Shown here piece by piece: positions 1-45,360 of a stretch of 64,000 nt of DNA. This DNA comes from Novakomyces olei (lineage: Eukaryota). Within the stretch, counting starts at the first letter, position 1; each line of letters starts with the position of its first letter. The notes under the pieces were generated by a model, which made no database searches, was not told the DNA's origin, and saw only the letters and a program-made list of their open reading frames with translations. Both the position numbers and the translations under genes were made by a program. The stretch spans positions 806,001 to 870,000 of the forward strand of contig JADEYG010000012.1 of NCBI GenBank assembly GCA_016906335.1, given 5' to 3'.

Positions 1-194
1 TCAAAAAGTTTGAGAACGGGTTCATTACCGATCCTTTTTGTTTTACCCCTAAACACATTGTCCGTGATGTGCGCGATATCAAATCAAAATACGGGTTCAG
101 TGGCATCCCAATCACAGGTGAGTTGGTTCACTAGAATAAGAGCTTTGCCGGGTTTTCTTTGTTTCTTTGCCAGGTTTTTTCGGCTCGACAGGTT

Positions 195-278
195 AATATG
201 TGATGAATTACAATTATAATAACTTTCGTTCTACCAAATGACTTTGGTCGTGAGGAAAACAAGTAACTAACTGAATTA
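195..278 (+). ncRNA. snR54: Box C/D snoRNA, snR54 homologue (guides 18S rRNA Am974-equivalent), in an IMPDH intron
   Basis: Box C GTGATGA at 200-206 and box D CTGA at 271-274. Guide TAACTTTCGTTCT (220-232) is complementary to conserved 18S AGAACGAAAGUUA and is followed by a degenerate D' (CCAA 234-237). Flanking stem TCGACA (185-190)/TGTCGA (285-290). S. cerevisiae snR54 is also in an IMPDH (IMD4) intron. Confidence 0.85.
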
Positions 279-417
279 CACTTGTGTCGAGAATTGACCA
301 TCTACTTGCCCAGAATTCAATATTTGAATTCTACAACTTTTCAATTGCTCTATTTTCTGTCTGTGCTACTGGCGCAAGCGATTTTAGTACTTTGCAAAGA
401 AAGAGGCTAATGTATAG

Positions 418-1529
418 ACACGGGCAAAATTGGTGGCAAATTGCTCGGTATCGTGACAGCACGTGACGTCGAGTTCCATGACAATGACGACTCTGCTCTC
501 TCTGAGATTATGACTACTGACGTAATCACGGCGCCACAAGGGATCACGTTGGAGAAGGCGAACAACATTCTGCGCCAGTCCAAGAAGGGCAAATTGCCCA
601 TTGTCGATGATAAAGGCAATCTGCGATCATTGCTAGCTCGAAGCGATCTCATGAAGAATCTTAACTTTCCATTGGCCAGCAAATTGCCTGACAGCAAACA
701 GCTTATTTGCGGAGCTGCCGTGGGCACACGGCCGGACGATAAAGATCGGCTGGCTCTTTTGGTAGAGGCCGGCTTGGATATTGTTGTGCTGGACTCCTCC
801 AACGGAGACTCTGTCTTCCAAGTGGAAATGATAGAATGGATTAAACGCACTTTCCCTCAGCTCGATGTTATTGCCGGCAACGTGGTCACTCGACAGCAAG
901 CTGCCCGACTGATTCAGGCCGGGGCCGATGGATTGCGTATCGGTATGGGCTCTGGTAGTGCCTGTATCACACAGGAAGTTATGGCTTGTGGTCGGCCTCA
1001 GGGCACAGCCGTCTTCCAAGTCTGTGAATTTGCTTCCCGGTTCGGAGTGCCCTGTATTGCTGATGGCGGTATTCAAAACGTGGGCCATATGGTAAAGGCA
1101 CTTGCTCTCGGAGCCAGTACGGTTATGATGGGCGGTCTTTTGGCAGGGACTCAAGAATCCCCTGGCGAGTACTATATCCGTGACGGTCAGCGCTACAAGG
1201 CCTACCGGGGAATGGGCAGTATTGCCGCTATGGAGGGTACCAAGACTACGGAAAATGCCGCTACCGGCCGTTACTTTTCTGAGGACGATGTGGTGCGTGT
1301 GGCCCAGGGAGTCAGTGGACTAGTGGCAGACAAAGGCTCCCTGTCCCGTTTTATTCCATACTTGTACACGGGCATTCAGCACGCTTTGCAGGATGCTGGA
1401 GCGCAGGGCGTTACCGAGTTTCAGGTGCGGGTCTTAAACGGTGACCAGCGGTTCGAACTGCGTAGCAGTGCTGCCCTGCGGGAGGGAGATATTGTTGGAT
1501 TTGCGACATACGAAAAGCGACTTTATTAG
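418..1529 (+). CDS. gua1: IMP dehydrogenase, last exon (5' exons lie outside the window)
   Basis: Branch/acceptor GCTAATGTATAG ends at 417. CBS-domain remainder, catalytic [39 protein letters not shown] and C-terminal YEKRLY. Confidence 0.97.
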
Positions 1530-1868
1530 GTGATTGCAATAGAATGGTAATAGTAATAATATTATAGTAATAATAACGTAGCGATAATGATCTTGAAATC
1601 GCAATGATTGAGCAATAAGTTGGGCAATAATAGTAGATGCTGGAAAGAATTTTGAAAATATATAGACAGATTTTGACCCTAACCCTGACCCAGTTTGTCA
1701 TTAGATATTAGGCAGTAATTGAGGCAATCGTTAAACTAAACTCTGAATGTTCAAAGGCACATCTATAATCCAGCAAATACAGATACAAACAAGGCACTAT
1801 TGCTGACTTCTCTGGCAACCAAGTCTGCATGCAAAATTATAACTGTTGAAGCGCCATGTTTGGCCGGC

Positions 1869-3254
1869 CTATGTGTAAAAAATCTGTGCACTTAATATGC
1901 CAGAGTTGTCTGGCCTCAGCTGCACCCAATGCGCACTGAATCCCTCGGGAAACACAAACGTTGCAATGGTCGAGTCATTGTCCCATTGCAATTTCTTATA
2001 CAGCCCAAACTCACCGTGTCCGAGAGCATCGACTTCAATGTCGACAGACGTGATGTCAGACGGTCCATGCTTTTGCACGTGCAAACATTTATGATCAAAG
2101 TTAGTCATAAGGTAGGGATCAGAGGCCTGATTTTCCTTCACTTTGGTCTGCCACCAGGGCCCACCCCAGCCTTTTGGTTTACCAAAAGACCACAGGTCGT
2201 CAGTTTTACCAAAAAACATGTTAGACTGGGGCTCTGCAGTGTAAGGGTTGAGGCCGTCGCTCGGAGAAGCATTATCTGCTCCAGCAACAAACAGACCCTG
2301 CCAGGAACAAAAATCTCCCAGGACATTGAGGTGCGTTGAGATCGGCCTCACACCCCAGATACGTCCGCCATACGCCCATGGCGAGAGCTCATAATACATT
2401 CCGTGCGCATCCATGAGAAGACGCTCATGCTCGACCTCCCTAATGCGCGGCCATTCAGTCTGCCATTTGTGATCAAAGCAATGAGAAGCTTTGGGCAGTC
2501 TGTAAAGAGTCCATTTCTTATCAGCGTTTGTGAAGACGTATAACAAAGCTGAAGCTTGATCCCAGCCCAAGGCGAACATGGTGCCGCCAAAGGTCAGTCT
2601 GCCTCCGAGTCCAACAAAGGGAGACTTTGATATTATTGTCCAGTCTTTCCCGTCCCATTCAGCCAAACGGCCCCGTGACTGTTTACGAGCCCAATCGCCT
2701 TCATCGTACTCATTGGAGCAAACCACAAGCCGATCGAAGCACGAATAGCAGTCCTTGTAGTGTACTTTCCATTCTCCCTCAGTTTCCAGTTGGTCATTCA
2801 AATCAAACAGAGGTGCGCACTCCAACGTTATCACATTCAGCTCCCAAAGGACGCCCTCCATTGTGAGCACATAAACATGACTATCGGGTTTAGTAAGGTG
2901 GGCACATGTACCGCACAGTCTTTCGGGTTGCAGTTTGGGGACAAGACGGATTTCGTGCTTTTCAGAAATGACGTAGGGGCCAAGTACGAGTGAATTCGTG
3001 GGGAAATGGATGTATCGATTGGCATAAGTGCCATCGATGCCCAGTGTCTGTTGCACAATTTCCATTGAAAAATCAGGCGAAATTCGTCTCAGACTTACCC
3101 CTGCACCACTTTGCGCCTTGTGGGAGTTGTAACACTGAACGTACAGAAACCCATTCCACGGCATTAAACTGCCTATGCCGATTTCTGAGCGTGGCGGACC
3201 CAGGCTGGCGACCTGCGTCAGCGAAGGAAAAATCCCCGATACATTCAACGGCAT
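1869..3254 (-). CDS. Uncharacterised 461-aa intronless, Trp/Gly-rich protein resembling bacterial hypothetical (possibly beta-propeller, carbohydrate-related) proteins
   Basis: Long ATG-initiated ORF with no introns and no signal peptide. Motifs SGIFPSL, EIGIGSLMPW, GTYANRYIH, TEWPRIR, GKPKGWGGPW and SDPYLM recall a bacterial family rather than any yeast protein I recognise. Confidence 0.7.
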   Translation of the reverse strand: MPLNVSGIFPSLTQVASLGPPRSEIGIGSLMPWNGFLYVQCYNSHKAQSGAGVSLRRISPDFSMEIVQQTLGIDGTYANRYIHFPTNSLVLGPYVISEKHEIRLVPKLQPERLCGTCAHLTKPDSHVYVLTMEGVLWELNVITLECAPLFDLNDQLETEGEWKVHYKDCYSCFDRLVVCSNEYDEGDWARKQSRGRLAEWDGKDWTIISKSPFVGLGGRLTFGGTMFALGWDQASALLYVFTNADKKWTLYRLPKASHCFDHKWQTEWPRIREVEHERLLMDAHGMYYELSPWAYGGRIWGVRPISTHLNVLGDFCSWQGLFVAGADNASPSDGLNPYTAEPQSNMFFGKTDDLWSFGKPKGWGGPWWQTKVKENQASDPYLMTNFDHKCLHVQKHGPSDITSVDIEVDALGHGEFGLYKKLQWDNDSTIATFVFPEGFSAHWVQLRPDNSGILSAQIFYT

Positions 3255-4228
3255 AACGAGACAAGATTCGTATTACAGTCGTGGCAATTGCACAAAAGGT
3301 ACCACCGTCTCTGCACAGTGTATCGTAATTGACCGAATCCTCACGATAAATCGAGGAATTAGGTATAACCAGTAAATTAGGGAAAAGTACAATATTATAA
3401 TAATATTGTTATAACAATAATTGTAGAATAATTATAAAATCGTGAAACTTTTAATGATAGTAAGTTGTGCTCGCAGAAAAGGCGGGCAATCGGGAGCAAA
3501 TAGCAAAACAAAAGAATCTGTCTAATGTCAGGAGAAGCAGTATACAAAAGTCTGCATTACCCTTGGTTTAAGTTGGCTTATTTATACACATTATTATGCA
3601 CGATGTATGGCGGAGATATTGTCACCCGCTTTACCCGCATTTATGTGGGGAAACACAGTTCCAACGTGGGCGGGCGTTTGGTTTGATTGGTCATTAGTGT
3701 ATTGAACCCGTAAAATCCCAATTTACCGGCAAAAAGTGCGGGTATCGGATATCGGCCAACAGTAAATGTATTCATCCACGCTGTTTGCGATTCTGCGTGT
3801 CGCTCTTGCTATTTTGACGTCTTGAAAAGGAGATAATTAATAATAGCAGCACAATAGTCTAAACTTTTAATTTTAAGCCCTTGGAATACGCGGGGAAATG
3901 GGTCTAAACAATTTTAGCATAGTTGCTACCATGAAAGCTTGCGCTGCTCATATCTTTGTTGCAGACTTCCATGGCAAAAGAAAGGCGCGGCCAATACGCC
4001 AGCATCTGGGGCACATATAACCTCAATGAGCCTTATCTGATCCACGTAACGTAATCCTGCGTGCAAAGCTACTTGTGAATATTTTCTGCGTTGCTATACG
4101 GATCTTCCATAATATCAGCAATATATCGTCATATCAAACGAATCATTTGATAAACAATCTTCCCATTACTTTCACATGAACTTGTCTTTGCCGGTGGTCA
4201 TCTTTGTTGAGCGCGGCAATGATTCAAA

Positions 4229-5191
4229 ATGCGAACTTTATGGTTTTACCTACTGGCGTCTACATCATTGGCAAGGCAAATACCCGTGCAAGATAAAAGC
4301 CATGAATTAGTACTGGAGCGTAGGGTATTTTCAGTGGCCGATATCCATGGAGATTTTGAGCATACGGTTGTTCTACTGGAAAAGGCTGGAGTTATATCAG
4401 ATTCTAGTCCTTTAAATTGGACAGCAGGCAACGCGACACTCGTACAGACTGGCGATATTGTAGACCGTGGGCCTGACACACGAATCCTGTTTTCCTGGTT
4501 ACGCGATCTGAGCGTGGTGGCCTCTTTGTATGGTGGATCTATCGTTCATTTGTTAGGCAACCATGAATTCATGAATGCAATGGGTGACTGGCGCTACGTT
4601 TCCCAACAAGACCTACTCTCCTTTCCCCAGCCGCACAAAAAATCTCGTCAAATTGAGTTTAGCCACTGTGGCACTATTGGACTTGATTTCTTGCACAATT
4701 ATCAGCTCAGTTATCTCGATCCTATAGGCGTTTTCTTCATTCACGCAGGCTTGACTGCAGAATGGGCAAAACGCGGAGACTACAACTCTCTGAGCCGAGC
4801 TTTTATGGCACATTTACTCGAGGGCCATCACGATCGCGAACGCTGGCCGCTTCAATTTCAGAAATTTTATTCTGCCGACGGCCCATTATGGTATCGAGGA
4901 TACAGTACTCAGCCAGAACCGGTCGCTTGCATAGAAGCAGAAGATGTTCTAGACCGTTTGGGTGCATCAATGATGGTCGTTGGCCACACTATTAATATGG
5001 AGTACGTTGTATCTCGGTGTGAGGGCAAAATACTTGCTATTGATACCGGGCTTTCTGCCGCCATTGGTGGGCGGGGCTGCGTTATTGAACTGCAAAAGTT
5101 CGAGGGTCACAAAAATTTGCGAATTATTGCCTACTATGACAATGAAACAGTCATTCTGCAGCCAGGGCCAAGCAAAGCTGATGTTTTTTAA
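4229..5191 (+). CDS. Secreted/lumenal calcineurin-like metallophosphoesterase (Shewanella-like phosphatase type)
   Basis: N-terminal signal peptide. Motifs DIHG, GDIVDRG, GNHE, HAG, GPLWYRG, GHT and IDTG. Confidence 0.9.
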   Translation: MRTLWFYLLASTSLARQIPVQDKSHELVLERRVFSVADIHGDFEHTVVLLEKAGVISDSSPLNWTAGNATLVQTGDIVDRGPDTRILFSWLRDLSVVASLYGGSIVHLLGNHEFMNAMGDWRYVSQQDLLSFPQPHKKSRQIEFSHCGTIGLDFLHNYQLSYLDPIGVFFIHAGLTAEWAKRGDYNSLSRAFMAHLLEGHHDRERWPLQFQKFYSADGPLWYRGYSTQPEPVACIEAEDVLDRLGASMMVVGHTINMEYVVSRCEGKILAIDTGLSAAIGGRGCVIELQKFEGHKNLRIIAYYDNETVILQPGPSKADVF

Positions 5192-5659
5192 AGATTTAGT
5201 CTTTATAAGGATGGATTTGAAGCGATTTGTCTCGCTGTGGTCCATTAAATTAAAAATATAGAGGCTATCGGGCAACTAGGCGCTATAGATTAGAGGAGAT
5301 TTAGCTTTTGAATAATTGGAAAAGGCGTTGTGGGACTCTGCATTATAGTATGGGCATAGAACGAACGAGTATACCAATAAGATTAAACTGTATTCGCGGG
5401 TTAGGGTTTATTTTCTGAATAAACCGACATGATACTAGACTCGAATGTTTTTTGAAGTAATATTAACCTATAAACAATTTTAATAATGATAAATCTTCAA
5501 ACGCGATTCAACGCCAGCATCTAACGAGCTCGTTTGAAAGATCAAGCATTTGCCCCCATTTGAAAATCAAGTTCTTTGCAAATTGATGGGGTCATTTCTT
5601 TTTCTCTCTCAAGTGAGCTGGTTAGTGCTCTTACTTACGAGAAGGAGAGTATCCATTTT

Positions 5660-5882
5660 TTGCAAGATTGTCGCACACGACTGCTCATTCGCTCTTTGCT
5701 ACCAGCTGGCGGCGCGATAGGAAACTGGGCGTTCTGTTCAACCTGTCGTAGTGAGCACTCTATACAATATGTATTTTACTTGCTATAAAAACTGTGTCTC
5801 ATAGTTCACACTTGTGCAAGGATTGACCATCATGGCCTTTCACCTTTTCTACACGAGTGTGACTCCAATCACACATACATAT
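5660..5882 (+). ncRNA. Candidate box H/ACA snoRNA (structured intergenic RNA)
   Basis: 5' domain stems GCAAG/CTTGC, ATTGT/ACAAT, TGCTCATT/AGTGAGCA and CGATAGG/CCTGTCG. H-box-like ATAAAA at 5785-5790. 3' hairpin TCACACTTGTG (5806-5816)/CACGAGTGTGA (5852-5862) with an internal loop. ACA at 5877-5879, about 14 nt after the upper stem. Confidence 0.45.
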
Positions 5883-6295
5883 CGACACTATGGTTATAAT
5901 ACTGACAAATTTAAATTGTAGGCGTCCTATATAATATCATGTTGTGAACAATTAGAGCCGATCCTGTACAGCCGTCCAAGATGTCAAGCCCTGTGCAGCT
6001 GCAGCGGCGCATATTCGTATATTCTTTTGCAAATTATATGGCCGAGGCACTATATAATAAAAAGATAAGAAACATTATAGAACTAAAAAATAAAAATAAA
6101 ATAAAACTGTTTCACGTACATTAATTTACGGATCCTCGTATTTCATGTGCAACAGAAGGCAGATACATTACTTTGAACGAGTTCAATATGCCAACTCTCA
6201 GATTCAGTGAAATTGGAGACAATGCTTTATTCATTTAGAAAACCCTAACTAGCTTATATATTACCAGAGCAACAAAATCACAAGCCCAAAGCATC

Positions 6296-6943
6296 ATGGC
6301 CGACGTTTCTGACCCGAAGATTGTGGAAGGTAGCATTGAGATCAATTGGTATAACGTAATACTGATGCGCTCAAATAGCATACAATGATGTCCGTGACGA
6401 TAAGTCCGAGACCAATTGGTACGTTTATGTTTTGGGAAAGTACTCGGTTCCGATCGTACTAACGCGCCAAAAGGCTGTTGCTCAATTACGAAAGCGATAA
6501 AAGCAACAAGCTAGAACTTGCGGCTACGGGTAAAGCGTATTTGTTCTTCCATATTTTACTATGCTACAATGGCTTCGTCGTGAATTGTTTTTATCGTGAA
6601 GACTGACAATTGGGCGTTCAACGCCGTTACAGGTTCCGGAGGCATCTCAGAACTACGGGAGAAACTTGAGCCGACTCAAGCACAGTACGCTTATGTGCGC
6701 GTGACCTATGCAAATGACAAAGAATCACAGCGTGTCAAATTTATTCTTTTAGTATGGATTGGTGAAAACACTAAAGTTATGAGGAAAGCCCGTATTTCCG
6801 TTCACGCCACAGATGTGAAAAACGTCTTACGCATCTTTAGCATTGATGTGCCCGCCAGCACACTCTCTGATGTAAACGAGGATGCTATTGTCAAAAGACT
6901 TCGCTCGGCTGGCGGTGCGAGTTATTCGTTCTACTCATCATAG
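6296..6943 (+). CDS. Coactosin-like ADF-H domain actin-binding protein (4 exons)
   Basis: Spliced product MADVSDPKIVEAYNDVRDDKSETNWLLLNY...GSGGISEL...KFILLVWIGE...KARIS...RLRSAGGASY, with three GT-AG introns. Confidence 0.88.
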
Positions 6944-6955
6944 AATTGGTTTTAA

Positions 6956-8315
6956 TTAAAATATGTCTAAAGCAGAAATGACACGCGTCTTGTCATCTTG
7001 TTCATAGTCTAATGCTGTTCTTGTCGCTCGGTGAAGGGCAATATTTTCATCTTGTCCACCTAAAAGCGATAATGCTGCACTGCGCCAAAGGCTGATAATA
7101 GCTTTCAGTTCGTGAATGTGCAGAAACGGGGTATCATCGAAAGCTTTTTCTCGCCATTTGTCAAATGCGGACGCTGATTGAACCAGCTCGGTCCATTTGT
7201 GCCGAAAGTCAGGCATCGTCTCGTTAAATGTTCCGATGGCGCCGGCCTTGAGCGCCAATGCTACGTCCTTCAGACTATCGAAACGATAGGGCAAAAGCAA
7301 GTAATCAACATCAGCTGAATCTTTATGTACAGAGAGTAGGCGACGACGAATGTACTTTGGCATGATTTCGCAAAGTGTATGCTCAATATCTGTAAGCTGA
7401 GAAAGAAGCTGAGCATTGTCCTTTATAAGTTCAGAGTTTCTGCTAGTTTCACTCAGAATGCTGTGATTGTTTTCACGCTCATCTCCCACAGTGCTTGTAC
7501 TAATTGACCTCGATTTTTCCTCCGCCACATCAGGAACACTCTTGACCTGAACAGCTGGCTCTTCCAGTTCGCCGTCAATTTCCATTGCCTGATCATTTGC
7601 AGCCTCATCTCCTACATGCTTTGACGATGCAAATTCTTTGCGCAAACTCTCGATGAGATGTGTGACTGTTTGCGCATCCGCAGAGTCGCGTACAGCAATG
7701 CCCTCCGTCATCGTTTGGTTGCCCAGATTGCGGTCATTTGTCAGCAGTATCACCAGCCTGCCTTCTCGCTGAGACAGGAAGCTATTGTCAGTAACAAAGA
7801 AATTAAAGTAGGCAAAAACAAAACAGAAATCTAGATTATAGAACGAAGCAAAAGCAAAGGGCAAATTACATGCAGCAATCCATAATTGCCTGATCGTGCT
7901 TGAGGGATGAGTCAATACGCTGATTGCTGCGCTGACCCAACAGCCCCACATGATGCTCCCGAAGAGTCTCGTAGACGTACCGGATCGCCCTTCTCGCTAG
8001 CACGCCCACATCTCCCGCAGCAGAGGCAGCCACATTTTTCAGCGCGTCCAGCTCGTGAAACACAGCGATAGGTATCACAACTGCCGCATTATTTGCCGCA
8101 CAAATATCAACAAGCTGCCGGATAAGCGCGAGCTTTAATAGCATAAAGTTTGTGTCCACTACGAACGCGACTCCGTACGAGCTCGTGCCCTCGCTCTCAG
8201 GCATAACCACATCTTGTGCATAATTTGACGGCTGATGACGAGCGTTGCTGATGACGGACGATACCGTGTTGATGACGTTGGCGTCATCAACATCCATAGA
8301 CTCGTCATACTCCAT
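6956..8315 (-). CDS. swt1: PIN-domain RNA endonuclease, Swt1-like (2 exons)
   Basis: PIN motifs FVVDTNF, VVIPIAVFHELDALK, HDQAIMDCC and LLTNDRNL across an intron near 7785-7870. Confidence 0.8.
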
Positions 8316-8619
8316 CTGACTGCTTCATCGCTGATAACGCTAGAGCGCTTTTATCATACTGGATTTTATTTGCTATACTATATTGAATCAAATATTGAAT
8401 CAATCTGAATAAATTACTTTCTCCTATTTTCCTGTATCATATAAATGTATCAAAATTAGCTGAATTATTTCCAACATACAGTACTCGCCTAATTTTCCAT
8501 CTTTTATTTTTCTACTCTCATATTTTTCTACTCTCATATTTTTCTACTCTTAATTTCCTAGCTTTTATTTATTATTTTTGTTTTAATTGATTTTTTTTTC
8601 AAAAGCAAAAAGCTCAACA

Positions 8620-24454: not shown

Positions 24455-26687
24455 TCAACGTGCCGTCTTGGTCATCTCAATTCCCGCATCTTCCACATGT
24501 TTACTCTTGTGCTTTACAATCTGATTGCCACGGCGGGTAATCTTTTTCAGCTTCAACTCAACATAGCCATTGTCGGGATAATTGATGGGCGACTCGCTTC
24601 CTGTAAACAGGAATATGTCATACACAAGCGCACCGGCAATCCCGCCGCCAATGCAGCCGCCCCAGACACCCCACGTCCACCACCAATGAGTCAGATGGAA
24701 AGCGTGGGCTCCGTACCCCACCATTGAGGCAAAAATACGTGGACCCAGGTCACGTGCTGGGTTAAGGGTAAAACTGGTCTGGTATCCCAGAGCCATACCA
24801 ATGGCAGCGATTGCCAGGCCGACGACAAGAGCCATAAGGCCATTGGACGGTGGGTTGTTAGCATCGTCACCCAGAGCCAGAAGGCAGAGAATGAAGACCG
24901 CACTGCCGATAAACTCGTTGAAAAAGGCATTTCGCCATGTTACATAGGGGCGAGGATTCGTAAACAGACAGGCACCAGAGGCGGCAGTGCGAATATGCGA
25001 GCCGCCTTCATACTCGTTTATACTGCTCCAAAAGTACCCATAAGACAGAGCACCGCCAAAGAAGGCTCCACAGATTTGTGCAAAAATGTATTTTGGCACT
25101 TTGCGCCATGGAAATCCTCGGAAAATAGCCATTACTAATGTCACGACGGGGCTCACGTGGCCACCGCTGCGTCCGGCGGCTACAAAGATGGAAAGCATTA
25201 CACCAAAACCCCACGCAAATGATAAACTGCAATTAGTATAAAAGAAGTGTATGAATTAGAAAGGTAAGATGGCACGTGATTATTTCCTTGTTTTAATTTT
25301 TATTTTTATTTTTATTTTTATTTTTATTTTTATTTTTATTTTTATTTTTATTTTTATTTTTATTTTTATTTTTATTTTTATTTTTATTTTTTTGGTTTTG
25401 TTTCCATGTCTGTATTTTTTTTCTCTTTTTTTTCTTTTATTTCATTTTTACATAATCTCTCAAGTCGTAGTCTTACCTTTCATACGACCCACCGGCGCCG
25501 TTACGCACCACGGTAGCCTGTAAATTACCACCCGTACCAAACACAACAAGCACCATTGTACCAATAAACTCGGCAAACGGTTCCCGAAGCCTGTACCGAA
25601 TTTTCGACCACATATTTGGGAAAGTGATGAGGTTATTGTCGTCGTCCGTTTCCGAATCCTGCGGCGACTTGTCCAGTGGCGGTGGCGATTCCACGAGCGG
25701 GTGCTCATCGTCCTCTTCGTGGTTCACAGAATTTGCTTCGCTGTCTATTGTGAACCGGACATCGTGGTGTGCGTGCTGTGGAGTGAGCTGCTGCCTTTGC
25801 CTCTTGCTGTTCTCCACAAAGGACGACGAAGGTTTGAGGTGCTTTGAAACACGTGCACTAGCTGGTTTGCCATTAACATTTTTTAATGCCTCTAAATCAT
25901 CAGGAGCTTGCGATACAGAGTTTGATGCTGAGCTAAGCAGCCGACGCCACGTGGGCACGTGTGGAAGTTGGGGCGATGATCCAGCCGAGGCAGCTGCAGT
26001 TGCAGTTGCAGCGTTTGGCAGTGAAGCAGCCGATGCGTTACGCGAGGGCCCACGCGAAGTACTACGCGACCCAGCGCGTAAATTGGTACGCGAAGCCGCC
26101 CGTCGAGACCGAACTTCATTGTTTTTTTGTGCAATTTTTTCCGCCAGTGAGCGGTTCAGAACGTGTGGGAACGACTGGTTAAGGCTCCACAGCGGTTTCC
26201 CGCGGGTACGCACTTGCCCGCTCATTGCCGGATTGAACTCCTCATAGTACGGATCTATGTAAGAGCCATTTCGGCGGTAAGCGCCGAGACGGCTTTGCAA
26301 GTAATCGTACATTTGCCTCTCGCTCACCTCCGAGTCCTGTTCCAGCCGATGAAGGTTCGGAGCGGATCTGTTTGCCTTTAACCGACGGCGGCGGGCTGCC
26401 TCCCGCACAGCCTGAATTTGGTTCAATTCTTCTTCTTCTTCTTCCTCATCTTGTTGTTGCCCAGCGCCTCGGCCATCTCGAGGGCCGAGGCGAGCTTCGT
26501 CCTGTGCAACTATACCCCCCGTACTCACTGGCCGGCCTCCTCCTCTTGCAGGCTCTGTTCGAATCGAGGGCGGAGGCATCTCTGGCCCTAATTCTGCCTC
26601 TGATGCATCACTGCTATGATCATTGCGAGCAGGCGTATCGTCCATTCGAACGCTTTTGCCAGACTGATGGCTGTTTGCTTCCTCCAT
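24455..26687 (-). CDS. Aquaglyceroporin (MIP family) with long cytosolic N-terminus (intron 25227-25476)
   Basis: Motifs REPFAEFIGT, SFAWGFG, SGGHVSPVVT, RGFPWRKV, GYQTSFTLNPARDLGPR and ESPINYP. The NPARD motif indicates the glycerol-facilitator subfamily. Confidence 0.93.
25296..25391. repeat. (ATTTTT)16 intronic microsatellite
   Basis: Perfect 6-nt periodicity inside the aquaglyceroporin intron. Confidence 0.95.
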
Positions 26688-26952
26688 CGGTCCCGAGAGG
26701 GGCCGCTCGACTGCCGTATATATCACTTTTCGGCTCTATAGTGTTACTTTTATTCACAGCCCGCATTAAACCCACGCATGCCCGTTAGGGCAGGTCGCTT
26801 TCCTTTTTGGGATTCGGGCCGAGGGTGCCGTCATTATCGGTGGGCGTCTACTAATATGGCATCGTGGTTTGACATTTAACGGGTATTGGCACACGAAAAG
26901 ATTGAAAAATGGAAATAAAATAGCAAAGAAAAATAGTAATAGAATCATAATA

Positions 26953-27197: not shown

Positions 27198-29323
27198 TCA
27201 ATAGCCTTCGATACTCAGCCTCCGCCGGCGCCGTTCTTTAGCTGCTTTAGAAGCGGCCGCGTTTGCAAAAAAAGCAGCTGCCCCACCGCCTTTAGTCATC
27301 CTCCATTGGGCCGGCAAGTTCAACGTTGTGGGCCCAAACGTTGAAACTTCCATCGCCAGCCGCGCCATACACTGCCAGTGCTGCCGCTGCACCATAATAA
27401 CATTGGTCAAAGACTGCTGGGCAGATATATTGGGCCGGACGGATGCTAAACTGCCTAATAGATCAGTGTGAGGAACGTCTCCCGAGGAAGAGGCAACTAG
27501 CTCTTGCAGGCAGGCAGCAGCTGCGTTAGCCAGCGGAGACAGTTCATAGCCTCCTTCCAACACCATTATAACCCGACCGCCTTTTAGACCAGCGACTAAT
27601 TGCGTCATCAAGCTCAGTCCGTGTGGTGTTACCCTGTACCCGCCCAACCCATCCATGTGTCCTTCCACGAGATCGAAGCCGGCGGAAATGAAAACGAGAT
27701 CTGGGGCAAATTCTCTGGCAATAGGAAGGACAATATGATGCACAGCCGCCAAATACTCTGTATCGCCCATCCGATCAGAACGATCTTTGGCCTTGGACCA
27801 GCCGATATTCACGTTACGGCCCAGTCCACGGCCCTCGCCGCACCTGTCCAGGTCCCCAGTGAAAGGGTAAAAGTCGCCATCGTCATAGCGATGCAGGGAG
27901 ATGTAGAGCACATCATCCTTATCGTAAAAGCAAGCCTCTGTCCCATTGCCGTGGTGAACGTCCCAGTCAACGATCAGGATTCTACGTACTTTTTCCGGAT
28001 AATGCTGCAGCGCCCACCGGCTGGCCGTTGCTACGTTGTTGTATATACAAAAGCCCATCGCCTGGTCTGGCTCTGCATGGTGGCCGGGCGGACGAATAGC
28101 AGCGAACCCGTTCTTCAGTCTGTCCGTGACCACACTGTTCACAAGGTTGAGCAAACTGCCCACCGATTGACGGCATTCTGTTGGACTCCGGTCCGGATCG
28201 AATACTGTATCCACTGCTGTTCCCATATTTCCGCACCGTAGCTTACTTGTAAGCGTGGGAGGCCATTGCTGGTGTGGGTCCTCGCCTTCCTCAACAACGG
28301 CTGATTCTTCATTTGCCACTGTTACGGCATTCTGCAGCGGCACAAGTGCCCCATCCGCAGTGACTACAGAACCCCTTCGGGGCACAGGGTCCTCTGGTGC
28401 TACTTCGCCACTCGTAACTGACGTAGAATGTGCATTTGCCAGCGGCGGTTTTGCTTTTAGAGTGGCATCAGGGTTAGGGTCGGCCTCTTTATTGCTATCC
28501 GAAGAATCCTTTGTCGCGGCGACCGGCTTAGCATAATAATTTCGCATATGGACCTCACCGTGTACTCCTGCAATTTCCTCACGCAGAGCCAAACGACGAG
28601 GCGTGTTTAACACATAACGGAGTAACCCCCTACGGTGCCACTCTGTAACGATATACCGTAACCGATCAGCCCGCTCTGGGTGAAGACCGACACCGGCTTT
28701 AACTGGCTCGACTTTACGTACTGCAGAACAAGGGCATCCGTGGCCCAGTCCAGACCATACAACACCTGTTCTCTCCTGGCTAGCACTTTTCGTCTTTCGC
28801 GCACGATGAAAGTCAGCGTAATCCTCCCACCCTGCTTCAATTTCAGGTCCACGTACGCCGTAGCGCAAAAACGAATTTGATGAGGAATTTTCAGTGCTTG
28901 GGTTCGTCTTTTTGTCTTGACTTGAGTTTTCAATGAGCTCATTTTTAGTGTCTGCCTCCAATTTCGTTGCCTTTGTGTCTGCTTGTTCCTTGTTCTCTTC
29001 TTTTACCCTTTTTGGCTCCTCGTCGTCTTCCTCCTCCTCTTCTGTATTATCAGACTCCAGTCGGCGTACCATGTTTGGTGGGATCCAGTCATCTTCTATC
29101 GCAGAAAACCCTTCGAAATGAACAAAGACTACTGCAGTATCCTGGGATTCTGCACTCAATGGTGTAATGTTATCACTCCGACCAAAGTAGAATTTGGGGA
29201 AGATTCCCAACTGGACAACACGTGCCGCATACCAGGTTCCGTCAGTATGTGGCTTGATTGCTTCGATTTTGGCGCCAGGACGAAGATCTGCCATGATGTG
29301 AGCAATCGCCTAAACCAAGCATC

Positions 29324-29354
<31 letters not shown>

Positions 29355-30707
29355 TGGCGATCAAATCAAATAAGGAAAACAAATTTGATAAATAAAATTT
29401 AGCTAAATTAAAAAAATAATTAATTGTACCTGGATGAGTAGAGAGTATAACGCCATCGTAGCCTGATTCTTCTGGTTCTGTTTTCGCATCATCAGTCACG
29501 TCCAAAGATTTCACTAAGGGTGAGGAGTTGCCTGAGAAATTCACAGAAGATACAGGCAGGTTTACGGACGCTGCGCTGGACAATTGCGGGCTGTTTTCCA
29601 AATCATCCAAGACCTTACGGCGTTTAGACGCAGAAGACGCGTTAGACACGCTTGATAAGTCATCAGGATAGTTTTGCTGGTAAACAAGAGGAGAAGGTGC
29701 TCTATTTCCTTGTGCGGCCGTCCGTGCACAAGCCCTATAGATGTTTTGAAAGTGGTGGGGCCCATAGTTGAACCCAGATGGCACGAGGACTACATTTCCT
29801 CCTGCATCAGTTCTCTGCGAGAATCCCGTGTTTTTTGGGTAATTGTATCGAGCTTGCTCATCTAGACAGTAGACGTTAGTAAGAATTTGCAAATGTCCTT
29901 GGCCCGTAATTCACCGTTCGCTCCAACGCGGCATTGAAATAAGAATATCGATAAAACTGATAAACAAAGAAAAATAAAAGAAAATAGTGACATTTAGGTT
30001 CATGCAAATCATAATTCATGTTTTAATTTGATATTCCACTGAAACATTTAAGTAATGTAATATGCAATTAGGAGTAAATAAAAATAAAACTTCCGCTAAT
30101 CTTATTAGGTCCCAGAAGATACGTATAGAGGTAAAATTAAAAAAACACCCGACAAAAGCATTGAGGAAATTAATGAGATCTTAATATAGGGGATAGATAA
30201 TGGTTATATGAAGGGTCAAATTAGCATGCACGCCAAATAATAGAGGCTTTTTCAATTATCATAGTTCAGAGTTGACAGTAAGAGTTTTGCAAAATAGAAA
30301 TCAATAAGCATCTGTTCTTTCAAATCAGACAGTCTCATACTCAAGTCTTGGAAAAGGGCTAAACATCAAACATAGAAGACAAGCAGTAAACAAGGGACTC
30401 GCGGATTTTGTGACCGGCGAGAGTTAGAAACACAAGTGCCGCACCATTTACTATACATGAATAGTAGATTAAATGTTGACAAAATGATATAGGTAATATG
30501 TCCTCACAATAGGTGGCAATTACGCAATGATCAGTCTGCGCAAATAATACAGATTTAGAAAAGCATAAAAAATGACCGCCAATACGTTGTGCGCCAAGTG
30601 CAAACTGCAGGCGGCGGAGCGTCTGGAGATATAGTCATACCGTACGGGTGTGATGTCGGTCGGCGACTTTGATCGTCGTCGGCATTGAGGAGTAGCCGAA
30701 TATCCAT
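27198..30707 (-). CDS. Class II histone deacetylase with class IIa (HDAC4-like) features and an N-terminal Tudor-knot/chromo-barrel
   Basis: HDAC motifs HPE, RPPGHHA, GFC, DWDVHHGNGT, SLHRYDDGDFYP, SAGFD and LEGGY in ORF 27198-29294. Inferred upstream exons in phase: 30707-30641 (MDIRLLLN...), optional 29956-29915, and 29861-29430, spliced to 29287. The core is certain; the 5' exon model is inferred. Confidence 0.9.
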
Positions 30708-41391: not shown

Positions 41392-44300
41392 TTATGCGTC
41401 CAAATAGTCTGCTACACTGGCAACAGAATAAATAAGCCGTGCCTGGCAAGAAGCCTCACTGGCCAGCAGCGCGATGTAGACACGCTGGGCCACACTGAGG
41501 TTTGCAGAGGCTCCAAAAGTACACCAGTCACGGTAGGAAATAGCGTGTGGACACATGCAGACTTTCTTCAAAAACGCCATGACGGAGTTGGGCACAAGCA
41601 TAGAAATTTCACGATAGTCATAGTCATCCTTCATGATCCCAAACAGCCGCTGAGCACTGTACCAAATTGCATCTCGGAACGGTGTGGAGTCCAGCTTTGA
41701 CACTCCCAAGTCTCGGCCCACCGAGTCAAGTGCCGGTTTGGCTGCACTGCTCCTGGCACTGGCCAAATCCTCCATGGCTGTGAGATCGTCGAGTGCCTCC
41801 ATGGCATTATGAAACTCGCGTTCAAACAGCTCGTCCATCTGTGGGATGTAGCGGCCAATAATAGCGGAAGCTTGATCTTCCCAGCTGTACTCTCCAAGCT
41901 GCAGTATATCCTGGTCACTGCTCTTTGAAAAATAGCGTCCATTACCGGCCAAAGCGTCCGCCTCTAGTGGACTGCGTGGCACGTATCCCCTGGCAGTGTA
42001 CCTCGAGGCATCTTGCAGCATAATCCCCACTGGCCTATCATCCGCATTTCTGCCTGCACGATCAGCTGTACCCAGTGTCGAAGCGGCCGCTGCCCTTCGA
42101 CGCAGACGGGGCAAAGTGCTTGATTGTAGATTGCTGCCTTCGCTACTGGCACTGTCACCTTGAAGAGTGGCACTACCACCATCAAAATCAGCACCCGTTT
42201 TGCCTGTTTCCAATCGCGATAGCTGAGCAAGCGGTGAGGCAGTTGACGGAGCCGATGTGGAAGTAGTAGGAGCCACAGGACTCGCAGCAAGTGCAGAAGC
42301 GGGTGCTATAATACTACAACTGCCATTGCCATTGCCACTGCCAATGCCTCCAGTGCTCTTACCCTCAGCGTTACTCCGTGGCGATGGAGGCCGACTCGAT
42401 GTTTGCAGCTCGCCTGTTCGCGAGTCAATGCACTGCTCAAAGCTGTGCAGACGGTTAATCTCTCTCATCGATCCAGTCTGCTCTGCTCCATTAGCTTTGT
42501 CACCACACCGAGCCAGACGCGCCCGGAGCAAATGCTGCAGGGAAAGGTACTCGCCTGACTGAGCACTGTCGTTATTATTGTCGTTGTTATTGTCGTTATT
42601 ATTGCTGCTACTGCTGCTGCTGCCGTTATTGTTGTTATTGCTACTACTACTACTGCTGCCGAGCCCTTGTCCCTGGACGCCGTAGGCAAAGGCGTCCACG
42701 AACGAGGGCACAGTCAGTTTTGCCAGTGGCGAGTGACGTATAAGGCTGTCGTAAAGGTTCTGTGAGATTTGGTTGCGTACTTTATAGCTCGGATGGAACA
42801 GGTCCTTGGGCCTCAAGGAGCCAAGCTCCTGTAGCCAGCGCAGTTCAGAATCAATCGTGTTTGAGTCCTGTGGTGGCAGCGAGGCAGGAGCTATAGCGGG
42901 CGAGCGTACACACGACCCTCCAAGGGTATCCGCCTCTGGAACTAGGGCAAAAGACAGAGCCTGCTGGCACCGGGCAGAGAAGAAGCATACACAGGCCATT
43001 GCCTGGACTAAGGCAGCCATTGTCCAAAACTCTGTACTATCCTTGGGGCCAGAGTTCCCATGCAACAGTTCACGGACATGCTCCCTGCGAAAGCCCCAGG
43101 GACACCGGATAAGCAGAGGCAGGTAAGGCGCCAGGCGACGGAACCTGGACGGAGCGTGATCCAGGCCTTTGAGCCACTCACACTCTGCAACAGTGGCACT
43201 TTCCTCAAAAAAGGCCGATAGCAGGGAAAGATAGTACTGGCAAGACATTACACTGGCCGTCATTATGCCCAGGTAAAGCTTGTAGGCCAGTGGCAATGGG
43301 CCATTGTTTGAATGGATGAGCCACTCAAACGTCTCGTAAACGCTACCAAGGTATCTCGGGAAATACGCCAGCATTTTACTGATGTTTGTAACTCGACCGT
43401 ACTGCAAAAACGACCGGATAAACAGCCGCGTCAAGTCTGGTCCTGCTCTCCACCTTGGGCCCACGATTCCGGAGGGCACACTCGTGCCCAAAGTGGCAGC
43501 TCGACGAGGCGAACTGTCCTGCCTCGCCCGTCTCTTGTTCGCCATTGATTTTCCCTTGGCATTATAGCTATTGCTATTATTCATATTATCGCTGCCCTGC
43601 TGGTACGAGCTAAATGGTGTTCGTGAAAAAGCAAATAGCGGACTGGGCTCCGTTATCCGCGACTGTGACTGCTGACGGGTCATGTTTTTAGCATTGCCCG
43701 TGGGCCTGAATGCGGAGGCATTAAAGGAAGAGCCGCTATTAAAAGTCACTGCTGTGTTAGGACTCTCATTCATGTCCCTCGTAGAGCTTAGACCAGACCG
43801 GCCAGAGACATTGCTCCGAGTCCTTGTGGATATTGGGATAGCAGAGGAAGAAATTGATCGGGCATCCGTGTCCTGCGCTGCCATTTCAAGTGCTGGACTC
43901 GGTGTGCTTTGGAGAGAGTAGGAATCTTCTCCTTTTCCGTCTCCTTCTTCCACCATACTAGCTTCCTCATCTGCTTCGTCTTCCACGTCTTCTTCCTCGT
44001 CTTCATACATTTCAATTTCCTCGCTATTGCCGCTAAAATCGCTCAGCATGTCCAGCGAAAACAGGGAACTGTCGTAAACCGCCGACCCTGGGCCAGGGCT
44101 CTGTCGGTTTCCCACTGAAGGCCGGCTGCCAAAAGACGCCTTGCTGCCAAAGGAGAACGATGAAAATGAATCTGAAAAAACAGAGAGCCGACGAGGTTTA
44201 CGTCGCCGTTTTGAAGAAGTGCCTACATTTGTCGCAAACCCTACAACCTCTTGCGGCGCAATAAAACAACTGGGAGAAGGTGAAATTAAATCAGGTGCAA

Positions 44301-45360
44301 AATTAACAACTTGCCGAAGTCGACGCAATTGACTGCGACAGCATCGTCTTACATCAGCATAAGGGCAGTCATTGCTCAAGTTTAAAGCTCGCAGCATATA
44401 TGCCCCGAGCAATTCTCGCCGGGCCGATTGCTCCTCAATATTATTGGCAGCTGGATCGTTCTTCATTTCCTCTTCCAACACCATTTCGTCAACGCCATAG
44501 GGACCAATTGATCCGAGTGTCGTACTCTGATAATTTGTAGAGCCATTAAATCTTTCGTCGCCCGCCAATTTAGATCTAAACTGAACTCCCGCAATAATAG
44601 GAGTTCCCTCATTGTTTAGGCCAGAAAGGTTTGAAAACGAATCGTTTGGCGATAAGACGCTGGGCGACTCTAATCTAAATTTTGCCAAATTCTCTGCATT
44701 TTCTGCATCTTCTTCTACACTAAAGACTTCGTCCCAGGGAGAGTCACCTGATGTAGGCTGCTGCTGTTGCTGTTGTTGTTCTTGTTGCTGTTGTGCTAGC
44801 CGGCCGTCTTTACTAGAATTGTAAGCAGCATTGGCAGTTTGTGGAGCACGTGTTGAAGGCGATGGAGCAGGCCGAGGAGTTTCTGCCTCCGCAATAGCCG
44901 CTGGACGAGAGTTGGGGGCTTTTGAAATCAGACTACGCCAAGCCTGGTTTCCGTACAGCGTGCGAATCAAAGACTCGAGGAGCTGAGATAGACTTTCAAG
45001 AGCATTGCGCCGTAGTGCAGGGTCATCAGTCTGAAGGCTATTGAATATGCATAATTGCGCACGGCTAGCATGAATATAGTCGAGCAATTGGCTAGACCCT
45101 AGACATATTTAATTGTGGAAACAACAAAGAAAGGATGAAACGTCAGAAGAAAGCAATCAAATAAATTAAATTAAACAAAAACAAATAAATATATAAATAA
45201 ATAAATAAATAAATAGATTAAACAAAATTAGCAAGAACGATGAATAAAATAATACAGAGGGTAAACACGATTTGGAAAATTAAATAAAATGCTTACGCCT
45301 TCTAGTCGGCCGGTGCCCGCTATCACGAGCACTGCCACTAGGTTTGGCCGGTTCAAACAT
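41392..45360 (-). CDS. Sestrin (PA26 family) with long low-complexity insertions, about 1260 aa (2 exons)
   Basis: N-domain GRVTNISKMLAYFPRYL..GPLPLAYKLYLGIMTAS..CQY..EWLKGL..APSRFRRL..PW..WTMAALVQA. C-domain YSWEDQ..FRDAIW..FGIMKDDYDY..FLKKVCMCP..EASCQARLIY. Exon 1 (ATG 45360, MFEPAKPSG...) splices in phase through a GTAAGC donor to an acceptor near 45100. Confidence 0.9.

Follow-up and report, generated by a model that had tools for sequence, protein, structure and literature searches.

The transferred gene that is the subject of this analysis lies at positions 1869-3254, on the minus strand, of a 64,000-nucleotide stretch (the window) of the fungus Novakomyces olei (assembly GCA_016906335.1, contig JADEYG010000012.1, positions 806,001-870,000). 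It is an intact ATG-to-stop frame encoding a 461 aa protein. Because homologues of 455-480 aa align with this protein from end to end, the frame is a single exon, as originally predicted. The gene lies among host genes. The 3' part of the host gene for IMP dehydrogenase (IMPDH, positions 3-1529, plus strand) is convergent with it and carries a 300 nt GT-AG spliceosomal intron at 118-417; the best PDB matches of this IMPDH are of the eukaryotic type, the top entries being presumably fungal. On the other side, a calcineurin-like metallophosphoesterase is encoded divergently at 4229-5191 (plus strand) by one long ORF with a leader-like N-terminus. Further along, 24455-26735 (minus strand) holds a gene that by eye resembles an aquaglyceroporin with a long extension at its N-terminus, and HDAC- and Sestrin-like genes are found at 27198-29910 and 41392-45108 (minus strand). 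The description of the neighbourhood as intron-rich holds only in part: the IMPDH gene has its intron, but the window also contains host frames of 520, 703 and 1238 codons free of stops; since such long frames are common here, the absence of introns is by itself weak evidence for a foreign origin. An IMPDH gene is also situated two genes away from the homologue in two Microlunatus loci (L034 and L038), as it is in the fungus, and given that the fungal IMPDH is eukaryotic-type and contains an intron this shared proximity is probably a coincidence.

The protein contains 4.1% Trp and 8.9% Gly, in keeping with the richness in both residues that had been pointed out, and of the eight pieces of the sequence pattern given in the original prediction seven match literally, the eighth being short by one spacer residue. 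No signal peptide was found in the 461 aa protein, as had been claimed: the highest 10-residue hydropathy within its first 40 residues is 1.2, and none of 120 close homologues reaches 2.4. The start of the fungal protein coincides with the starts of its bacterial homologues (median N-terminal extension 4 aa), and the lack of a hydrophobic leader supports the cytosolic location proposed for it.

The gene is present in a single copy on a chromosome-scale contig (C12) of a 14.3 Mb genome assembled into 15 contigs. One contig from sequencing run X1 spans positions 1-8534 of the window without a single difference, although the assembly may have been built from X1, which is thus not independent. Two further runs (X3 and X4) contributed no pieces. 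Run X2, from an independent study, yielded 19 shallow pieces of at least 99% identity and a depth of about 1-6. Among the eight of these that were listed, the piece covering 2943-3403 bridges the start codon and the next one overlaps it and extends into the upstream gene; the listed pieces cross the 5' junction only and none spans the whole gene. The possibility that a bacterial contaminant was joined into the assembly can draw on the shallowness of X2 and on the possible identity of X1 with the assembly source, but is vanishingly improbable. The third-position GC content of the gene is 0.53, compared with 0.43-0.60 in 17 host frames and a median of 0.90 in 79 bacterial homologues, and its codon use fits the host. 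Synonymous divergence from the bacterial homologues tested is saturated in all eight comparisons (pS 0.82-0.91) whereas pN is 0.21-0.27, and this conservation of the protein implies past selection. Neither a bacterial frame nor another operon gene was found beside the gene in the window, and searches of its flanks revealed no terminal repeats or transposon-like ends. A search for phage matches found none. The reads, the host-like composition and the saturated synonymous sites contradict a chimeric assembly, and the gene is an old, retained part of the fungal genome and not a contaminant.

At least 2497 homologues are detected at an E-value of 0.001 or better, the best of which are 68-71% identical to the fungal protein over 100% of its length. 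Among the matches listed, the named top ones all belong to Actinomycetota (e.g. Kribbella, Occultella, Auraticoccus and Microlunatus), with a BLAST score of 670 bits to Kribbella compared with 409 to the best named eukaryote; several top matches carry no species label, including P0005, the sister of the fungal protein in the tree. In a quick tree of 95 rows the fungal protein is nested within a 49-row clade whose named members are all Actinomycetota (SH-aLRT 100), a second quick tree places it in the same position, and SH-aLRT values are the only support measure of both. Forcing the fungal gene together with P0005 into the eukaryotic branch of the family costs 158 log-likelihood units and is rejected by the AU test (p-AU 1.4e-5), which was run on 43 of 68 rows after long branches and redundant rows had been dropped and on a group chosen after the tree had been seen. 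No named fungal protein occurs among the best 120 of 2497, 120 of 482 and 120 of 3361 matches. The bacterium-to-fungus transfer foreseen in the original prediction is genuine; its donor, however, was not of the Bacteroidetes or Planctomycetes type to which the sequence pattern had been assigned, since the trees nest the protein inside an actinobacterial clade. What did stand of that assignment is the main range of the family, which is widespread in Verrucomicrobiota (46 of 301 genomes) and in Planctomycetota (28 of 301) and is also found in polysaccharide-utilisation loci of Bacteroidota. Within the class of genome G001 it was found in just one of 301 genomes, the seed itself, and its distribution in the donor group is therefore patchy. 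Almost certainly, an ancestor of the fungus acquired one gene of an actinomycete sugar operon on its own, and has since brought its codon use into line with the host while keeping the protein intact.

The family is not confined to bacteria. A separate eukaryotic branch (support 100), to which the member from the sponge Sycon gave the lead, comprises many molluscs, Sycon itself, the choanoflagellate Monosiga, the foraminiferan Bolivina and two diplonemids, and its members mostly possess signal-peptide-like leaders and hence look secreted. None of the eukaryotic members P0127 and P0319-P0361 has a Pfam domain, almost every one is labelled uncharacterised or hypothetical, and paralogues are present in Bulinus and Gigantopelta. 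The existence of this branch is what would favour vertical inheritance from an early eukaryote followed by loss in most fungi, yet such a history is scarcely credible: identity of the fungal protein to each of the 19 named eukaryotic members is no more than 38-48%, several nodes supported at 95 or above separate it from them, and the AU test rejects their union. The sister of the fungal protein is P0005 (support 99), which comes from a 5-kb contig and shares 10 of the 67 rare residues of the query, compared with at most four in the other 119 proteins; no relative of P0005 above 70% identity is found among the matches listed. P0005 could represent another copy in eukaryotes; alternatively, the two may be long branches that have been drawn together.

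The structure model of the protein (mean pLDDT 94) consists almost entirely of β-strands. Residues 5-354 (positions 2193-3242, minus strand) form a β-propeller, an assignment based on the model, fold matches and conservation, and residues 355-461 (1872-2192, minus strand) a small C-terminal jelly-roll β-sandwich weakly resembling CBM6 and CBM32. The structure prediction and fold search proposed at the outset thus lead, with high confidence, to a predicted cytosolic β-propeller with a small jelly-roll domain. From the DSSP strands and the matches to seven-bladed proteins we infer that the propeller has seven blades. Its best fold match is virginiamycin B lyase (Z 20.9, rmsd 3.5, 268 residues aligned), tied with WD40 scaffolds, and further top matches include YncE and a lectin; PL24, PL25, PL42 and arylsulfotransferase are absent from the fold matches listed. 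The C-terminal domain folded alone is most similar to a phage cement protein (Z 8.7), with CBM6 and CBM32 at a non-specific Z of 6-7, and the matches of both domains are generic. Sequence searches of Pfam, NCBIfam and the PDB with the protein and two alignments returned nothing usable. Thirteen residues, R22, E24, Y42, N79, R80, R112, H165, K167, N181, W264, E267, W268 and R270, are near-invariant in a comparison reaching residue 392, whether among 40 close homologues, among 19 eukaryotic proteins or among the remaining, mostly unnamed members, and the fungal protein retains every one of them. As they stand where strands start and where B strands end, they would line one face of the channel. 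P0122, P0133 and many homologues of 800-1200 aa are long forms, with either the whole module or its C-terminal half, i.e. the last blades and the jelly-roll, repeated. Among 45 mostly long homologues, five carry a sulfatase, two an M14-like domain, two a PEP-CTERM signal, one a T9SS tail and one a weak match to dockerin. An M14-like hydrolase adjoins family members or is fused to them (L056:5294-6457, L103:4626-5750, P0125 and P0158), where it is perhaps a de-acylase for the same substrate.

The gene neighbourhoods of the bacterial homologues are rich in genes for sugar uptake and breakdown, bearing out the link to carbohydrates that had been suspected. The usual operon in Actinomycetota comprises a solute-binding protein, two sugar-type ABC permeases, the family gene, an RpiR regulator and a PF12831 FAD oxidoreductase (740 aa). 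Across 80 genome loci, ABC permeases were counted in 42, RpiR regulators in 41, the oxidoreductase in 41 and IclR regulators in 28, raw counts that are inflated by the 28 loci of Kribbella. The association with the oxidoreductase holds in seven named actinomycete genera and in two of five Spirochaetota loci, and in Planctomycetota loci too the oxidoreductase is adjacent or co-operonic; in many other loci of that phylum a regulator alone adjoins the family gene. In 42 further stretches, 40 picked from the best matches plus the two Bacteroidota plasmids treated below, and with the target missed by the gene caller in six, the oxidoreductase was labelled in seven and a sulfatase in eight. Both Bacteroidota plasmid homologues (31-32% identity) follow SusC/SusD genes, and the Chondrinema plasmid locus encodes a symporter, a homologous FAD oxidoreductase (31%), a GH30-like protein and a sulfatase. 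The neighbouring enzymes as a whole (GH2, GH3, GH28, GH39, GH42, GH92, GH95, GH97, sialidase and sulfatases) do not indicate a single substrate. The oxidoreductase, a 740-770 aa protein with a C-terminal galactose-binding-like domain (L001:12304-14529 and L131:9211-11520), accompanies the family in several phyla. Its similarity to proteins of solved structure does not go beyond the Rossmann motif, and no functional paper on it was found in the literature searched. Sulfatase-family genes are present in the fungal genome, as are DHDPS-family genes that by eye resemble ordinary fungal ones. An aminotransferase-like and DHDPS-family region occurs twice in that genome (L123 on contig C9 and L126/L127 on contig C10), and the copy on C10, near the start of the contig, has many stops and frameshifts and is either a decayed duplicate or an assembly error.

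Several known systems invite comparison. Virginiamycin B lyase (Vgb, PDB 2z2n) is a cytosolic propeller enzyme with a His/Glu-Mg site and the best structural match, but at 9% identity and tied with WD40 proteins the match shows only the fold, and the context of the family is carbohydrate use and not resistance. GH33 sialidases are six-bladed and contain Asp-boxes. They share with the family an Arg-rich propeller, and one homologue sits in an operon with NanR-, NanA- and sialidase-like genes, but membership of GH33 was rejected, as neither the protein nor an alignment of 99 relatives matches BNR and the blades are probably seven. DUF2139 (PF09910) emerged as a feature neighbour in the ESM Atlas at 0.94 (an archaeal cluster, 488 aa), which serves as a lead only; it was also rejected, its HMM matching neither the protein nor the 99 relatives, although one of these searches had no positive control. 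The polysaccharide lyases PL24, PL25 and PL42 and the glycoside hydrolase GH145 are described as seven-bladed propellers that act on uronic-acid glycans with catalytic sets of His, Arg and Tyr (PMC8377490). The probable number of blades and the types of invariant residue are similar here. The differences are that the fungal protein has no sequence match to the BNR_4 Pfam family or to PDB entries and possesses the additional C-terminal jelly-roll, that the top 50 fold matches include none of these enzymes, and that the order and spacing of the conserved residues could not be equated, and membership of these families failed on sequence.

On balance we lean towards a cytosolic enzyme for the cleavage of an anionic glycan fragment, and the fungal protein probably adds a new type to the known sugar-cleaving enzymes. 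It would be exo-acting, and its central pocket would bind a negatively charged oligosaccharide fragment, whether a uronic, an ulosonic or a sulfated one, with R22, R80, R112, K167 and R270 holding the carboxylate or sulfate and H165, Y42, E24 or E267 providing the cleavage chemistry. A β-elimination by His and Tyr, as in PL24, PL25 and PL42, is the first guess for this chemistry, with hydrolysis a close second. The enzyme would be cytosolic where fragments are imported, as in actinomycetes and the fungus, and exported where the attack is extracellular, as in Bacteroidota, animals and protists. In the fungus it may act on imported fragments of glycans from bacteria, algae or plants and release sugar that the cell can use.

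A more specific form of this proposal, whose probability is contained in that of the anionic-glycan reading, assigns the family a role in the use of sialic-acid-type (nonulosonic) sugars, as a new ketosidase or as an accessory enzyme such as an epimerase; the cluster of Arg residues would then serve the carboxylate alongside a Tyr/Glu pair. In locus L053, NanR-like and NanA-like genes precede the family gene, which shows translational coupling to the NanA-like one; genes for an ABC transporter and a GH33-like sialidase come next. In L064, the symporter encoded two genes ahead of the family gene finds its best PDB match in 5nv9 (E 1e-80), which we take to be the sialic-acid transporter SiaT, and NagA-, NagB- and ROK-like genes flank the family gene in L041. 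This specific role nonetheless appears unlikely, as a NanA-like gene was seen in only one of the loci annotated, among those neighbours of the 80 loci that were scanned, the NanA-like and NanR-like matches fall under curated cut-offs, the probable seven blades and the missing BNR or Asp-box match are unlike GH33, and a BNR_2 sialidase was not found in the fungal genome with the query used.

Comparably doubtful is an enzyme acting on a small released sugar acid, such as a lactonase, mutarotase or dehydratase, for which the FAD oxidoreductase would oxidise the sugar first. The recurrence of that oxidoreductase next to the family gene in Actinomycetota, Spirochaetota and Planctomycetota agrees with such a pairing, and the named ESM Atlas neighbours include the lactonase-like families SSL_N and SGL (0.83-0.85, again a lead only). 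Secreted, PEP-CTERM, T9SS-tailed, dockerin-bearing and sulfatase-fused forms are better suited to polymers or oligomers, however, and the fungus has kept the gene without the partner, no full-length PF12831 oxidoreductase being found in its genome with the queries used. Improbable to a somewhat greater degree is a non-catalytic, carbohydrate-binding or scaffold propeller: the top fold matches do include non-enzymes (WD40 proteins, YncE and a lectin), but the dense set of invariant His, Arg, Lys, Tyr and Glu residues and the cytosolic place in catabolic operons would be more typical of an enzyme. The lone retention of the gene in the fungus suggests that the enzyme is useful without its bacterial partners.

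Transfers of single genes for metabolic enzymes from bacteria to fungi are widely reported (PMC11291939, PMC2459174). The genes concerned are likewise intronless, ameliorated and embedded among host genes, and taken by itself the transfer adds a further well-supported example of a process already known. This case differs in that the family is without annotation and has an independent eukaryotic branch. No description of the family was found in the literature searched, which covered PF12831, DUF2139, protein accessions and early-ascomycete transfers, and a passage on DUF2139 (PMC13712998) is unrelated to it. The value of the finding lies in the family itself, a large, unannotated and probably carbohydrate-active group in which none of the homologues is annotated, which is set among polysaccharide-utilisation genes in several phyla and has a conserved eukaryotic branch. 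We tentatively regard it, at rather less than even probability, as an unrecognised carbohydrate-active family in which a seven-bladed propeller acts on anionic glycans, and which eukaryotes may possess twice, once as a secreted and possibly digestive protein of molluscs, a sponge, a choanoflagellate and other protists and once as the cytosolic protein of the fungus and perhaps of P0005. Because the members from the fungus and from actinobacteria are short, soluble proteins of a single module, in actinobacteria encoded within a compact operon, they offer the easiest way of finding the substrate. If this reading is true, a single assay would provide an annotation for thousands of hypothetical proteins in the glycan loci of Verrucomicrobiota, Planctomycetota and Bacteroidota, and would reveal a new glycan-digesting activity in animals and protists.
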